DNA from: Dictyostelium discoideum
Lineage: Eukaryota
Reading direction: 5' to 3'
Assembly: GCA_000004695.1 (NCBI GenBank)
Contig: CM000155.2
Coordinates: forward strand, 32,001-96,000
DNA: 64,000 nucleotides
Shown: piece after piece, positions 6,541 to 18,628 of the stretch
How positions within the stretch are numbered: the first letter of the stretch is position 1
Layout of the letters: each line of letters begins with the position of its first letter
The notes under the pieces: model-generated
Databases searched by the model: none
What the model was told of the DNA's origin: nothing
Seen by the model: the letters and a program-made list of their open reading frames with translations, nothing else
Made by a program: the position numbers and the translations under genes

Positions 6541-7827
6541 TTATTCATCTTCTAAAATATCTCTAGCATCATAATATTCTTGAAGTAAACGATAGATATA
6601 GGATGGATTATGACCACCTATATTTGTTATGAATAAACTAACGAGATCTGGTGCAACATAATCAAAGGTTGGATTATAACTGTGAACATTTTCTAAAAAT
6701 TCTGCTTCTTCAAATTTTAAATATTCACCTGGTGAACCAAAATTATTGAATGTATCTTGATCATATGCATATAATGGACAGAGTTTATAAAGACCAGTAC
6801 AAACCACTATTGGTACAGAGTGATATTTAGCAGCTACAGCCAATGTATGTGTACCAGAGGTAGCAATTAAACCACCATTGGCCATTACTGCATGTGTACC
6901 AATAATAACTTTATTAACACGTGACATCATTGCAAATACTGCTGAATCTGTAATTAATGTTGTATCGATTGATGCTTTTGATAATGAAATTGCTGTTTTT
7001 TGACCTTCAAGTCTTTTATTTTTTTTTTTTTTTTTTTTTTTTTTTATTTTTAGAATTAAAAATAATAGAGAATTAATAAATTTTTTTAAAATAAATGATT
7101 GATTATAGAATTTTAAAAATTTTGATACATACGATGGAGCAGTTTCAACAACAATAACTTTAAAACTTCTTTTTCTAGCAGCTTCTTTTAAGAATTCTTC
7201 AACGGTTCTTGAACAACCTAAAGTCATGATGGTTTCATTTGAATGAATATGTTCAATTGCTTGTTCAGCAACATTTCTATGAAGACCTTCTAATTCATCA
7301 ATTAATTCATTGATACTATCCATGATTGCAGCTTTTAATCTTGGGAATGTTTCAGTGAAATCGATATCTTCTTGATCATCAATTGGATCGTCTTGTAACA
7401 TAACATTACTATATTTATTATTTTTATTGATATTACTACTACTATTAATATTATTATTATTATTGTTGTTGTTGTTATTACTGGTAGTAGTTTCAAAATC
7501 ATCATCATCATAATCATCATTATTTAAACCATTCTTTTTATTTCTAAAAAATGTTAAATATTCTTCTCTAATTATAAATAATACTCTTCTAACTATGTTA
7601 CCAATACAAAATTCTAATGGTTGTGCATTCATTAACTTTTTACCAATTATTTTGATTTGATCAATCAATGATTTTGCATTTCCCCATTTACCTTTATGTA
7701 CCCATTGTCTAAGTAATTCTGCAGAGGCTCTTGATACTTGATATGATCCAACAACTGTTTTTCTCTTTAAATGTAATATAAATGATTCTAATTGTTTCTC
7801 TAATTGTTTTTCCGCTTGTTTCTCCAT
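6541..7827 (-). CDS. eif2b2: Translation initiation factor eIF2B beta subunit. Exons are 7133..7827 and 6541..7012, with intron 7013..7132 (GTATGT donor, poly-T plus AG acceptor).
   Basis: The N-terminus LESFILHLKR...NIVRRVLFIIREEY parallels human EIF2B2 (ESFVETLKR...NMVRRVLKIIREEY). The C-terminus carries the IF-2B family core LITDSAVFAMMSRVNKVIIGTHAVMANGG. The continuous track ORF reads through the intron as KKKKKKKK; splicing TC|gtatgt..ag|A restores APS-LEGQ. Confidence 0.85.
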   Translation of the reverse strand: MEKQAEKQLEKQLESFILHLKRKTVVGSYQVSRASAELLRQWVHKGKWGNAKSLIDQIKIIGKKLMNAQPLEFCIGNIVRRVLFIIREEYLTFFRNKKNGLNNDDYDDDDFETTTSNNNNNNNNNNINSSSNINKNNKYSNVMLQDDPIDDQEDIDFTETFPRLKAAIMDSINELIDELEGLHRNVAEQAIEHIHSNETIMTLGCSRTVEEFLKEAARKRSFKVIVVETAPSYVSKFLKFYNQSFILKKFINSLLFLILKIKKKKKKKKNKRLEGQKTAISLSKASIDTTLITDSAVFAMMSRVNKVIIGTHAVMANGGLIATSGTHTLAVAAKYHSVPIVVCTGLYKLCPLYAYDQDTFNNFGSPGEYLKFEEAEFLENVHSYNPTFDYVAPDLVSLFITNIGGHNPSYIYRLLQEYYDARDILEDE

Positions 7828-9616: not shown

Positions 9617-12215
<2,599 letters not shown>

Positions 12216-12333: not shown

Positions 12334-12966
12334 TTATTTTTTTAATACAGATTGAATTGAAGTGAAAGATTCAGGTATTGAGATATGATGTTTATATAAT
12401 GATTTTGATTTTTTCCAAGTATCAAGTGTTCCACCACCAAGTGGTGCAGGACCAACAGCTCCTGTAAAAGCAACTAAAAAATCAGACTGTTTAGCGATAC
12501 TTGTGTTTCTATTTTTAAAGCCAAATTCTGAATTATCTAAAATTGCACCCAATTCTTTGGCTTTTATTAAATCAAGTATTGTATCTCTTCCAATTTGTTT
12601 GCTAAAGTTTGAATGATATCCATTGGTTATTACACCATTTGGATGTTCAACATCAAATCGATATTGTGTTATTTTCTCATCAACTTTATAACCAACGATT
12701 AAACATGGTAAATGGATAATAAGTTTACAAGTTGTTGGGTTTTTTAAAAAATAATCAACTGCAACATGATCACTCCATGCCGCACCCCCACTTATTAATG
12801 TTATATTGTTTAGTTCTATCTTGTGTTGTGTTTCTAAATTATTAAGATATTGCCGAAATGTATCACACAAATAATCAAAATGTTTACTATTTAATGGTCT
12901 TGATTTATCTCTACCTGTTGTCCCAATTACCCCAATTGTGGTTGACTTTGCTTCTAATGATGCCAT
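12334..12966 (-). CDS. YpsA/SLOG-like (DprA/LOG-superfamily Rossmann) protein, intronless, 210 aa
   Basis: Three motifs align with Bacillus YpsA (DUF1273): IGVIGTTGRDK with ITGxRP, ISGGAAWSDHVAVDYFL with the GxAxGxDxxAA motif, and LIIHLPC / FLVAFTGAVGPAPLGGGTLDTWKKSK with VLPC / LLAVWDGSxGGT. The gene is a single ORF with AT-rich codon usage. Confidence 0.45.
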   Translation of the reverse strand: MASLEAKSTTIGVIGTTGRDKSRPLNSKHFDYLCDTFRQYLNNLETQHKIELNNITLISGGAAWSDHVAVDYFLKNPTTCKLIIHLPCLIVGYKVDEKITQYRFDVEHPNGVITNGYHSNFSKQIGRDTILDLIKAKELGAILDNSEFGFKNRNTSIAKQSDFLVAFTGAVGPAPLGGGTLDTWKKSKSLYKHHISIPESFTSIQSVLKK

Positions 12967-13542
12967 TGATTTTATTGTTTACTTTTATTTTTGTTTTTTT
13001 TTTTAATAATGTTTTTATGTTTGCATTTATTTTAATAATAAAAAAATAAAAAAAATCAAGGTTTAAGAACAAAAAAATTAAGAAAAAAATAAAAAAATAA
13101 AAAAAATGGAATCAATTTAAATTGGTTTTCTCAAATAATTCTGAGGGGAAAAAAAAAAAAATAAAAATAATAACCAAAAAATTATAAATAAAAAAAACCA
13201 TTAAAAAATAACCAAAATCCCTGGTGAAATTTTATTTTTATTTATTTTTTTTTTTTTATTTTTTTTTTATTTTTTTTTTATTTTTTTTTTTATTTTTTTG
13301 CACTGTTTCAAACAATACTAAGTTTATTCACACCACCAAGATTTGTTTAGTTTTTTTTTTTCTGTTTTTTTTTTATATATCGAAATTTTTTTTTTTTTTA
13401 ATTAACAAAAATAAATAAAAAAAAATTAAACGAAACTATAAATAAAATAAATTAAAATAAAATAAAAAAAAATAAACTATAAATAAAATAAAAATAAAAA
13501 AAATAGAACAAATAAATATATTTATATATATAAAAAAAATCT

Positions 13543-15117
13543 ATGGGAGATGATATAGATGAATATTATTCAAGGAGATATGGAAATAATAATAGTTTAG
13601 TTAGTGGTGGTATTGATACAGGATTTAGTGAACACCGAACCATTGAAAATTATAACTATACTATCAATGATGATTCAATGATTAATGATGGAGCTAATAA
13701 TAATAATGATGATGATGACGACAATGATGAACGATTATTATTACCAAATCAAAGGGAAGGAGAGAATACATCATTTAAAGTTTATAAAACTCGTTGGTGG
13801 ATTTTATTTGTATTTATGTTATTATCATTGAACCAATGTAATTTTTGGATTACATTTGGTACAGTTGCACCAATGGCAAGTAGTTTCTATGATACATCGA
13901 TGTCAAGTATCAATTGGTTATGTGCTATTGGACCTTTAGTATTTGTGCCATTATCAATGGTATTCAGTTGGACCATTGGTAGATATGGTATAAGAAAGAA
14001 TGTTATTGTGGCAGGCTTTTTAGTTGCAAGTGGTGGTATTATAAGGTGTATACCTATGGGTGGTGATAAAACATTTTTCCTCATTGTTATTGGTCAAGTT
14101 TTAAATGCTGCTGCAGGACCAATCGTTATGATCTTACCAACTAAATTATCAGCAGTTTGGTTTGCACCACAAGAACGTACACTATCCACTGCGATTGCAA
14201 CACTTTCAAATTTCATTGGATCTGCAATTGGTTTCCTTTTAGCATTGGTTTGTACTGATGATAGAAATTTGAAGATATTACTCTATGGTGAGGCAGCATT
14301 TGCTGTGGTTTTATTGGCTGTAATACTCATTTATTTCCCAGAGAAACCAAAGACTCCACCATCTGCTACCTCTTTCTTTTCCGATATTCAATCGAGTAAT
14401 AAAAAGTTAATCGATTCAAGTGTAGTCTATAAAGAACAAAAGACACTCTTTGAAAGTTGGCGTGATCTATTCATTCAATCTGGTGACTTTTTAACTGAAC
14501 CAAGTGCTGCATTACTTTGTATAGCATGCTCTTTATGTTCAGGTGTATATGCTGGTTGGGGTGCTGTTTTCGTTGAAATCGTTCAAGATGATTACAATCA
14601 AACTCAAGCCAAATGGTTAGGTTTCTTTGGTATTATCGCTGGTATGGTTGGTGGCTTACTTTTAGGTGCAATTCACGATCGTGTTCATAATTTCAAAAAA
14701 TTACTTTTAGTCATTTTTGCTTTGAATACTGTAGTTTTCACTTTTTTTTCTTTATTAATCGATCATAAACTATTACCAGATTGGTATTGGTTAGGTCAAT
14801 TGTTAAATGTTGCTGGTGGTTTTCTAATCAATAGTTTCTATCCAATCATTTACGAAGCAAGTGTAGAATGCTCTTATCCCGTACCCGAATCCGTTGGAAC
14901 TGCTATCATCTCTATCTTTATCAATGTAATAACTTTTGTATCAATTATGGTTGGCTCAATTGTACCCGCTAAATACCTCAATTGGATATTGGTTGGTGCT
15001 TCTGGTATTGCCTTTTTCTTAATTTGTTTTGTAAAAGAAGAATATAAAAGAAGTAAAAATGATAATTTAGCTGGTTTTGAATCTTCAACTCCTCAAATTA
15101 TTCCTGGTACTGATTAA
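13543..15117 (+). CDS. Major-facilitator-superfamily transporter, FLVCR/MFS_7-like, 524 aa
   Basis: ATG at 13543. About 12 predicted TM helices follow a hydrophilic N-terminus. The pattern GRYGIRKNVIVAGFLVASGGIIRCIP plus a second six-helix half is typical of FLVCR/DIRC2-type MFS carriers. Confidence 0.7.
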   Translation: MGDDIDEYYSRRYGNNNSLVSGGIDTGFSEHRTIENYNYTINDDSMINDGANNNNDDDDDNDERLLLPNQREGENTSFKVYKTRWWILFVFMLLSLNQCNFWITFGTVAPMASSFYDTSMSSINWLCAIGPLVFVPLSMVFSWTIGRYGIRKNVIVAGFLVASGGIIRCIPMGGDKTFFLIVIGQVLNAAAGPIVMILPTKLSAVWFAPQERTLSTAIATLSNFIGSAIGFLLALVCTDDRNLKILLYGEAAFAVVLLAVILIYFPEKPKTPPSATSFFSDIQSSNKKLIDSSVVYKEQKTLFESWRDLFIQSGDFLTEPSAALLCIACSLCSGVYAGWGAVFVEIVQDDYNQTQAKWLGFFGIIAGMVGGLLLGAIHDRVHNFKKLLLVIFALNTVVFTFFSLLIDHKLLPDWYWLGQLLNVAGGFLINSFYPIIYEASVECSYPVPESVGTAIISIFINVITFVSIMVGSIVPAKYLNWILVGASGIAFFLICFVKEEYKRSKNDNLAGFESSTPQIIPGTD

Positions 15118-17485: not shown

Positions 17486-18628
17486 TTATTCTTGTGGAGG
17501 TTGTTGATCACAAAATTGATGCCAATGTACTTTTTTATTTTCAACATCAATTTTCCAACGTTGATAATATTCAGTTAAAATGGTAGTATTAGCAATGGTA
17601 TATTTATCGATTTCAGCAAATTGTGGTTCAGAGAGATCAGGAGTATTCTCTAAAGGCCAACGTAAGATGTATTTTAAACGTTCAACCGATTTTTGCATAT
17701 CTAAATAGTATTGTTTATTATCTTCCCAGAATTTTGGAGATTTTGGACGAGAGTAATAGTGAAAACAAACGTTGAGAGTTGGAGCAAAGAATCTAAATCC
17801 AGCTGAATACATTCTAACACTGTATAGAATTTCTTCACCTTCGAATAGATTTGAAAGATGAGGATCAAATGGTACCAATTTAATTGCTTCACCAGAGGTG
17901 AAAAAGAAACCAGCGGCAATGTAAGGACATTCGGCAGGCTTAGTTGTTGCCTTTAGGATGAATGAATTGAAGGTGATGATACCACGAGAATTGAATTCAC
18001 CTTTACATAATCTTGGTACACCTGTTTGATCAATCACTGGTAAACCACTATCTTCAACATTGTAAGCCATTGGATAATGAGTTAATACGGTACGTGGTAT
18101 ACCATTTTCACCAATAGGTGCGTATGATTTTGTCAACCAAAGATCATTGATAATCAATGAATCCCAACCTTTAATAAAACGTAGATGACTATCGACTTGC
18201 ATGAAATATGTCTCATTGTTGTAGAGGGTTGTTGCATAATAACGTGCTAATGTTGGTCCTTTCGATTGTGCCACTGTCAATGCTATTCTTCTAACATTTG
18301 ATTGTATCAATTCGGGTGCTACCTTTAACCCCCTATAACAGTATGAATTTGGAAATGATGGATCTTGATTTGGATCTTCCTCTAAAAACTCTGATCCTTG
18401 ATCTACTATACCAATGAATATTTTCTCTGGTCGATTGGCATGATTAAATATATAATTTATAGTGTCTGAACAAAATACATCCCTATATGCTGCTAATGAT
18501 ACAAATATGGTTGGATCTATCTCTTCTCCTACCACATTCCTATTTATTCCTCCTGATATTCCACCATTTACTGAATTTTTTACATCTCTTTCTGTTAATT
18601 TTGAATCGATTCTAAAATAATAATTCAT
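17486..18628 (-). CDS. Putative glycosyltransferase (GlcNAc-transferase-like, GT60/PF11397-type), 380 aa from the first ATG. The 5' end is possibly incomplete.
   Basis: The single ORF has acidic motifs (IVDQGSEF..EDPNQD) and conserved W/Y/H-rich blocks, which I recall as similar to Dictyostelium polypeptide GlcNAc-transferases. Immediately upstream and in frame is a hydrophobic stretch, LLGAVLIIVLIFQ, preceded by a poly-T plus CAG acceptor-like site. This suggests a missing signal-anchor exon. Confidence 0.5.
   Translation of the reverse strand: MNYYFRIDSKLTERDVKNSVNGGISGGINRNVVGEEIDPTIFVSLAAYRDVFCSDTINYIFNHANRPEKIFIGIVDQGSEFLEEDPNQDPSFPNSYCYRGLKVAPELIQSNVRRIALTVAQSKGPTLARYYATTLYNNETYFMQVDSHLRFIKGWDSLIINDLWLTKSYAPIGENGIPRTVLTHYPMAYNVEDSGLPVIDQTGVPRLCKGEFNSRGIITFNSFILKATTKPAECPYIAAGFFFTSGEAIKLVPFDPHLSNLFEGEEILYSVRMYSAGFRFFAPTLNVCFHYYSRPKSPKFWEDNKQYYLDMQKSVERLKYILRWPLENTPDLSEPQFAEIDKYTIANTTILTEYYQRWKIDVENKKVHWHQFCDQQPPQE

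Follow-up and report, generated by a model that had tools for sequence, protein, structure and literature searches.

Within a 64,000-nucleotide window of the Dictyostelium discoideum genome (contig CM000155.2, positions 32,001 to 96,000 of the forward strand), the minus strand carries at 12334..12966 an open reading frame (ORF) of 210 aa that runs from an ATG to a TAA stop at 12334-12336. Its translation is identical to that of D. discoideum AX4 DDB_G0291277 (XP_635111.1; Q54EX9), annotated as a "hypothetical/uncharacterized protein" across all sources, and no paper found in a literature search mentions DDB_G0291277 or any Dictyostelium SLOG/YpsA protein. A first-pass annotation of the window had described an intronless gene encoding a bacterial-type YpsA/SLOG protein. 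The coordinates and strand of this ORF are exact and, as the reading frame is unbroken and aligns end to end with its homologs, the gene is indeed intronless. The analysis reported here indicates that DDB_G0291277 probably encodes a stand-alone SLOG protein belonging to a distinct and mostly viral family, with a ligand that would be nucleotide-derived and an origin that would involve exchange with giant viruses.

The predicted structure of the DDB_G0291277 protein corresponds to one stand-alone SLOG-fold domain of 210 aa. It displays a Rossmannoid three-layer alpha/beta fold with a five-stranded parallel sheet and superposes on solved SLOG structures. In structure comparison, YpsA from Bacillus subtilis (2NX2) scores 12.8 over 147 aligned residues that are 12% identical, followed by ShosA (11.5), three DprA structures (10.0-11.0), the MoCo carrier protein (9.3), LOG-type proteins (8-9), the ThsA SLOG with 3'cADPR (7.4) and TRPM2 (6.5). 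Foldseek finds no match at E ≤ 1e-3 in the PDB; DprA and ShosA head its list (E 5e-3, probability 0.99), LOG/PpnN-type proteins come next, and YpsA is not among its top 50. The nearest solved relative of the modelled protein thus varies with the method, being either 2NX2 YpsA or DprA/ShosA, and membership of the SLOG superfamily, as judged from the model, is robust. The Gly-rich loops that follow strands 1, 2 (with an acidic residue) and 4, namely GTAGR, SGGAAWxDH and GGTxDTW, are 90-100% conserved and lie at strand C-termini or helix N-termini.

The signature of the family, GTAGR / SGGAAWxDH / LPC / NxxH..F / RN / GGTxDTW, can be followed along the minus strand of the gene (conservation was calculated over 264 family sequences, and secondary-structure positions are those of the predicted model). 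Within the loop that follows strand 1 (residues 9-15), residues 15-19 read G-T-T-G-R (12910..12924; family consensus GTAGR), with G15 conserved in 99%, G18 in 93% and R19 in 89% of the sequences. After strand 2, residues 59-67 (S-G-G-A-A-W-S-D-H; 12766..12792) form a Gly-rich loop and the N-terminus of a helix, S59, G60 and D66 being conserved at 100%, H67 at 98% and W64 at 91%. It is on this stretch that the weak DprA Pfam matches of family members fall (residues 38-81 of P0046). The DprA-type motif is S-G-x-A-x-G-x-D and the LOG motif PGGxGTxxE. Strand 3 (residues 80-85) ends in L-P-C (residues 86-88; 12703..12711; P87 99%). A helical insert specific to the family (helix 109-125) carries N-G-Y-H-S-N-F at residues 115-121 (12604..12624; N115 97%, H118 99%, F121 97%), and the helix preceding strand 4 carries R-N at residues 153-154 (12505..12510; R153 100%, N154 99%). 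The last block, GGTxDTW (12415..12435; helix 178-186), is located at the site of the LOG PGGxGTxxE and YpsA EGS sequences, with G179 at 100%, T183 at 96%, T180 at 94%, G178 at 93% and W184 at 92%. About 8 residues of a 'G..W..NPG' loop (12625-12680 on the minus strand, residues ~96-114) are missing in D. discoideum, D. citrinum and D. firmibasis, and are kept in D. purpureum, in Acytostelium and in the family consensus; this lineage-specific deletion adjoins the N115/H118 helix.

Conservation of at least 90% across both the viral/eukaryotic and the phage/bacterial branches concerns G15, G18, S59-G-G-A-A-W64, D66, H67, P87, N115, H118, F121, R153, N154, G178-G-T180, T183, W184 and H194, with R19 at 89%. 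The Dictyostelium protein retains every one of these residues, including all the universally conserved polar ones and, in the predicted model, they map to strand C-termini, helix N-termini and the family-specific insert. The strand C-terminal and helix N-terminal regions are those that form the ligand pockets of SLOG and other Rossmannoid domains (PMC9503650). An alignment of the 26 homologs retrieved by a word-index search shows the motifs GTAGR, SGGAAWSDHVAV, LPC, NPG..AN.YH..FS, GF..RN, AFT and GGTLDTWKK. The sequences GTTGRD, ISGGAAWSDHVAV, HLPC and GGGTLDTWKK, which the first-pass annotation had equated one by one with YpsA motifs, are all present in DDB_G0291277 and correspond to the most conserved positions of the family; their equivalence to YpsA is topological only and does not reach significance at the sequence level.

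Sequence comparisons connect this family significantly to no characterised SLOG family. The DDB_G0291277 protein matches nothing in Pfam, even at E ≤ 10, nothing in PADLOC, nothing significant in PHROGs and nothing meaningful among PDB sequences, against which the family profile gives nothing significant either. Its only NCBIfam match, to HflK (E 0.04), and a match to PI-PLC (E 0.27) were rejected as due to chance. Subthreshold Pfam matches occur among family members: YAcAr/PF10686 in 6 of 140 (best E 0.014), DprA/PF02481 in 2 of 140 (best E 0.0015; at best 18.1 bits against a gathering score of 29.6), cpYpsA (PF12694) in 1 of 140 (E 0.054) and SLOG cluster4 (LDcluster4) in 1 of 27. The hidden Markov model search that the first-pass annotation had suggested as a check therefore finds no significant SLOG or YpsA match, which at the sequence level speaks against its proposal; the superfamily assignment is rescued by structure.

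The relation to YpsA proper was evaluated with the B. subtilis YpsA sequence, confirmed against 2NX2, and 120 YpsA homologs, which together form an alignment of 121 sequences. PF06908/DUF1273 is annotated on all 120 YpsA homologs listed, and matches neither the query nor any of 167 scanned family members (E ≤ 0.1-10); Pfam scans of sets of 27, 140 and 10 members never gave a match to it. Comparison of the 264-sequence family alignment with the YpsA alignment by hhalign is not significant (probability 0.45%, E 0.13), nor is the comparison with the single YpsA sequence (probability 0.25%). Only 36 columns were aligned, pairing GF..RN..sD.LiAFT..GGT with QF..KN..SD.LLLYD..EGS, a pairing that is sensible topologically and not significant; the region around R153-N154 is the sole stretch paired with YpsA (QF..KN..SD). 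The GxD/E substrate-binding signature of YpsA corresponds to G53/E55 in the B. subtilis protein (PMC6459960). The equivalent loop, A63-W64-S65-D66-H67, retains the acidic residue, has a near-invariant Trp instead of the Gly and is spaced wider by one residue. On the PF06908, hhalign and GxD/E results, the protein is a SLOG of the broad YpsA/DprA-like part of the superfamily, outside YpsA proper/DUF1273. The identification of a YpsA/SLOG protein in the first-pass annotation thus holds for the SLOG fold, as predicted, and not for YpsA/DUF1273 membership.

The family is large. An exhaustive profile search over 1.84 billion cluster representatives delimits 1,981 members (50% identity clusters) at E ≤ 1e-3, including 1,283 at E ≤ 1e-30, and this family has neither a Pfam or NCBIfam model nor an experimental study. 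The 26 word-index homologs comprise proteins from Dictyostelium species (65-95% identity), from Acytostelium (45%) and from the Mucoromycota fungus Jimgerdemannia (38%), as well as about 20 metagenomic proteins (30-42%); none of the 26 comes from a named bacterium and none bears a precomputed Pfam domain. Cluster look-ups add D. dimigraforme, Tieghemostelium lacteum and Cavenderia fasciculata, together with a EukProt eukaryote, a transcript from Stenamoeba stenopodia and a second Jimgerdemannia paralog. Dictyostelium, Tieghemostelium, Cavenderia and Acytostelium are taken here to represent together all four dictyostelid groups, and Stenamoeba belongs to Discosea, so that the family has members in other Amoebozoa, where the first-pass annotation had proposed to look for orthologues. 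The genes of Jimgerdemannia and Acytostelium are longer than their coding sequences and therefore have introns. The C. fasciculata protein (P0061, XP_004359790.1) is annotated as an 'optic atrophy 3-like family protein', with the SLOG in its N-terminal 247 residues and OPA3 at residues 312-420; this architecture was rejected as functional evidence, since it probably results from the merging of two adjacent gene models.

Beyond these eukaryotes, many members are viral. Metagenomic relatives are found on a giant-virus-like contig of 980 kb dense in ORFans, and on contigs carrying a Vps4-like AAA protein, PIF1 and an archaeo-eukaryotic primase, carrying UDG, Prim-Pol and an Rpb5-like protein, or carrying U-box-VWA-Vint and RING genes. 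Another giant-virus-like sequence (L108, 287 kb, JAXOUH010049192.1 in GCA_034680565.1) encodes cathepsin/peptidase C1, an Fpg/Nei glycosylase, RNase III, SWIB, an NIF phosphatase and DUF5772, with spacers of about 50 bp; it lies within a eukaryote assembly of NCBI, either as an endogenous giant virus or as one that was co-assembled. In the family member that it carries (P0013), about 70 residues are inserted in a loop. In BFVD, relatives were found in Sylvanvirus (E 1.8e-16, TM 0.81, 30% identity) and in Orpheovirus (30% identity), whereas the SLOGs of Marseillevirus and Pandoravirus, annotated as YspA/cpYpsA type, are only 15-17% identical. BFVD also lists Orpheovirus fragments of 118 and 79 aa. 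IMG/VR contains at least 80 loci, including bins of giant virus metagenome-assembled genomes (GVMAGs) and a genome of 1.47 Mb with two copies. In the latter, the second copy (L098:4998-5587) consists of two ORFs that overlap in different frames and cover profile positions 10-125 and 126-206, respectively; the probable cause is either a frameshift that made it a pseudogene or an error in sequencing.

Cultured phages with the gene are Delftia phage RG-2014 and Erwinia phage UCB24. In RG-2014, an N4-like phage of the Schitoviridae, RG2014_011 (L107:3753-4313) is one of the small hypothetical genes that make up an early block at the left end, upstream of the genes for the phage RNA polymerase subunits, a placement that suggests early expression. 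Furthermore, 23 bacterial genomes carry a family gene, among them Microvirga, several Burkholderiales, Stutzerimonas, Methylobacterium and metagenome-assembled genomes of the candidate phyla radiation. Globally, the highest abundance of the family is in giant viruses and tailed phages, its occurrence in bacteria and eukaryotes being patchy.

The genomic setting of DDB_G0291277 is that of an ordinary Dictyostelium gene. Its coding GC content is about 0.30, the flanking intergenic stretches having 0.04-0.15, and its GC content at third codon positions (0.138) lies within the range of four neighbouring genes (0.12-0.21); its codon use therefore looks host-like, as the first-pass annotation had noted. 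The gene upstream, at 9617-12215 on the plus strand, encodes a PKD/mucolipin-type channel and consists of a first exon from 9617 to ~9917 and a second one ending at 12215, separated by a canonical GTAAGT...AG intron (~9918-10042). The earlier statement that the SLOG gene lies between intron-containing genes is thus borne out on the upstream side, the side that the evidence covers. The channel and SLOG genes are convergent, their ends being about 120 bp apart, and a long perfect (AAT)n tract at 12055-12210 (plus strand) provides the channel with a C-terminal poly-Asn tail, about 50 residues long. On the other side, a divergent intergenic spacer of 576 bp (12967-13542) separates the SLOG gene from an MFS transporter gene (13543-15117, plus strand). 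Other neighbours are an eIF-2B family gene (6541-7827, minus strand) and a GlcNAc transferase gene (17486-18628, minus strand). As these are genes of ordinary eukaryotic housekeeping types, there is no sign of a foreign island around the SLOG gene, and no second copy of it was found within the window.

Occurrence in all four major groups, host-like composition and an intron in Acytostelium indicate that the gene is old in Dictyostelia. In a neighbour-joining tree, the dictyostelids form one clade, next to which come, successively, the EukProt protein, one from JGI and then groups containing a giant-virus-like sequence (L003) as well as Orpheovirus and a GVMAG bin; the bulk of the bacterial and phage sequences fall in a separate clade. 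This topology was not used as proof of origin, its support being too weak. The presence of the family in four dictyostelid groups, in Stenamoeba, in another EukProt eukaryote and in Jimgerdemannia contradicts the description of the protein as bacterial-type and of its clade as prokaryotic. So does the fact that the nearest non-dictyostelid relatives with a readable context lie on giant-virus-like contigs, bacterial and phage members being mostly elsewhere in the tree, albeit with weak support. The old horizontal acquisition put forward by the first-pass annotation remains plausible, with giant viruses as a likelier source than Firmicutes, in so far as a poorly supported tree can tell. Exchange with giant viruses, rather than with Firmicutes, is most likely the route that the gene took between the amoebozoan lineage and the outside, into or out of it. 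One alternative, which concerns the origin alone, is that Dictyostelia made no horizontal acquisition: giant viruses would have captured, and most lineages lost, a gene already present in ancestral eukaryotes or amoebozoans. Giant viruses often acquire host genes, and the presence in all dictyostelid groups and in a discosean, the EukProt eukaryote adjoining the dictyostelids in the tree and the intron-containing Jimgerdemannia genes would all fit such a history. However, the eukaryotic spread is very patchy, whereas viral and phage clusters number in the hundreds and bacterial members exist as well, and the neighbour-joining tree does not resolve the direction; this scenario is considered unlikely.

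Clues to function come from fusions and neighbouring genes of other members. Paucibacter encodes a UvrD helicase-DUF4326-SLOG fusion (L017:537-5660 of Paucibacter soli), a protein of 1,708 aa with an intein (Intein_splicing/Hint matches) in its helicase domain, and Hydrogenophaga a UvrD-SLOG fusion. In a phage ORF of more than 2,000 aa (L089), the SLOG is followed by DUF4326 and then by NADAR. NADAR and DUF4326 have been described as ADP-ribose-processing and predicted phosphatase domains (PMC9503650). A separate NADAR+DUF4326 gene is located directly downstream of the family gene in 5 viral loci. Later work showed that NADAR takes ADP-ribose off guanine in DNA. Single metagenomic fusions involve a DEAD/ResIII helicase, an EndoIV-type AP endonuclease (AP_endonuc_2) and a DSPc phosphatase, and a GRF zinc finger is a further associated domain; no association with a Macro domain was seen in the fusions or neighbourhoods inspected. 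Most conserved neighbours reflect synteny among related phages or Microvirga genomes, and NADAR+DUF4326 is the only functionally informative one; the presence of a dCTP-deaminase-like protein, a phage RNA polymerase and an M50 peptidase was regarded as incidental. The SLOG is also the sole recognisable module of single ORFs of ~2,100-2,650 aa on phage-like IMG/VR contigs (L062, L064, L067, L069, L070, L082, L093-L095, L102-L105). These ORFs may encode virion-packaged multi-domain proteins. A Pfam scan of the phage ORFs of more than 2,000 aa revealed nothing besides DUF4326/NADAR (L089) and DUF7831 (L102) and, as it gave almost no domains, a 'polyvalent protein' reading was not developed.

These data are compatible with the following mechanism. 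A pocket would be formed by the helical insert peculiar to the family and by the Gly-rich loops that follow strands 1, 2 and 4, and would be lined by the invariant R19, D66, H67, N115, H118, R153, N154, T180 and T183, plus W64 and W184. We infer that this pocket would bind a nucleotide-derived ligand, most probably a derivative of NAD+ or ADP-ribose, free or on nucleic acid. The protein would probably process this ligand; cleavage of a ribosyl/N-glycosidic linkage, in the manner of LOG-type SLOGs, is one example. Viral YpsA-like SLOGs have likewise been predicted to sense or degrade signals of the cyclic ADP-ribose (cADPR) type via their 1'-ribosyl linkages, or to regulate the DNA-acting domains fused to them (PMC9503650). 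A TIR domain from D. purpureum reportedly makes cADPR (2026 preprint), which suggests, as a speculative link, that candidate ligands exist in dictyostelids.

Two other functions deserve consideration, both of them improbable to about the same degree. The protein could be a DprA-like binder of single-stranded DNA with a role in recombination or repair, and would then not handle a small nucleotide ligand. All the DprA matches are, however, below the gathering score (18 bits against 29.6), the single 210-aa domain lacks the flanking domains of DprA, and the dense invariant polar residues and capping insert resemble the pocket of an enzyme or small-molecule binder. In addition, the associations with NADAR, DUF4326 and a phosphatase point to ADP-ribose chemistry, and the neighbourhoods on giant-virus contigs are not operons. 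Alternatively, the protein could be a ThsA-like, non-catalytic sensor of a TIR-derived signal of the cADPR type, working with a separately encoded effector in amoebal immunity. Against this, no effector is fused to the dictyostelid proteins and they showed no conserved partner, the similarity to ThsA is weaker than that to YpsA, DprA or LOG, and D-H, N..H and R-N are invariant in viruses, bacteria and eukaryotes alike, as suits catalysis better than the sensing of a ligand in particular lineages. A bolder and rather doubtful extension of the preferred reading, that of a SLOG handling a nucleotide-derived ligand, is that the dictyostelid protein would be a domesticated counter-defence enzyme of giant viruses, or the cellular original of one, binding or degrading cADPR-type signals made by TIR domains or other signals derived from ADP-ribose, or clearing DNA of adducts of ADP-ribose type. 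Finally, a true YpsA/DUF1273 orthologue of Firmicute type, taken directly from bacteria and functioning like YpsA, is very hard to reconcile with the absence of PF06908 from a family whose supposed relatives all carry it, both hhalign scores, 12% identity, the Foldseek ranking, the replacement of GxD/E by A-W-x-D-H and the lack of any named bacterium among the word-index matches.

Several points weigh against the interpretation of the protein as a nucleotide-handling SLOG exchanged with giant viruses. As there is no significant sequence match to characterised SLOG families, the SLOG assignment depends on a predicted structure. The set of relatives is skewed towards the sequences most like the query profile, and the metagenomic contigs are called giant-virus-like by their gene content, size and names. 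Bootstrap values of the neighbour-joining tree are poor (33/100 for the monophyly of Dictyostelia, 0-3/100 for the deep split). For the functional context, the main sources are the phage/bacterial branch and a small number of metagenomic fusions; the dictyostelid proteins stand alone and lack informative neighbours, and the literature search found no expression or phenotype data for DDB_G0291277.

Nevertheless, a fold and a family can now be assigned to a "hypothetical protein" of a model organism, and a large SLOG family common in viruses turns out to have conserved cellular copies across Dictyostelia. The gene becomes a candidate for exchange between giant viruses and amoebae instead of bacterial transfer. 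The processing of ADP-ribose or cADPR by the viral family is a computational prediction; as D. discoideum is easily manipulated genetically and is used for work on ADP-ribosylation and amoebal immunity, DDB_G0291277 offers a practical route to the function of viral SLOGs. If the counter-defence hypothesis were true, it would reveal an amoebal NAD/ADP-ribose immune or repair pathway paralleling bacterial Thoeris-type systems, and some 2,000 clusters of uncharacterised viral proteins would for the first time have a cellular model amenable to genetics.

Among the known systems, B. subtilis YpsA (PDB 2NX2; PF06908/DUF1273) differs from the present family by its low identity, its Pfam family and a non-significant profile-profile score; furthermore, it lacks the conserved helical insert with N115/H118 and has GxD/E in place of AWxDH. 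In Firmicutes, YpsA inhibits FtsZ-dependent division and is gpsB-linked (PMC6459960), a biology without counterpart in the Dictyostelium protein. Compared with DprA/Smf and ShosA (PDB 3UQZ, 4LJK, 3MAJ, 8ZVA; PF02481), the family is below the Pfam threshold and devoid of DprA accessory domains; SGGAAWxDH is in register with S-G-x-A-x-G-x-D, a Trp replacing the second Gly. The LOG/PpnN proteins (PF03641), which are cytokinin riboside 5'-monophosphate phosphoribohydrolases, have different invariant residues, and the family has no match to their Pfam model. The catalytic Glu of LOG has no conserved equivalent, position 182 being less than 75% conserved (D, S, Y, A or G in the first alignment). Unlike PGGxGTxxE, GGTxDTW has no conserved Glu/Asp at +2 or +3. 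The ThsA SLOG of Thoeris (PDB 7UXS) is more distant than YpsA, DprA and LOG, and is joined to a SIR2 effector, whereas the Dictyostelium protein stands alone.

The closest parallel is the viral 'YpsA-like clade' of SLOGs defined in a computational survey (Iyer, Burroughs & Aravind 2022, Viruses 14:1977; PMC9503650). Like the present family, these SLOGs occur in caudoviruses and amoeba-associated nucleocytoplasmic large DNA viruses, are usually stand-alone, are found fused to or adjoining NADAR, DUF4326 and SF1 helicases, and are encoded in early/host-takeover regions of phages; their function, too, is a prediction. The survey covers viral proteomes only and does not mention the dictyostelid and fungal cellular copies. 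Since the Marseillevirus and Pandoravirus SLOGs typical of it are so distant from the DDB_G0291277 protein, and the match is one of distribution and associations, the present family would be one specific sub-family of the viral YpsA-like SLOGs. The dictyostelid copy is thus a cellular member of a virus-rich SLOG group so far treated only computationally.

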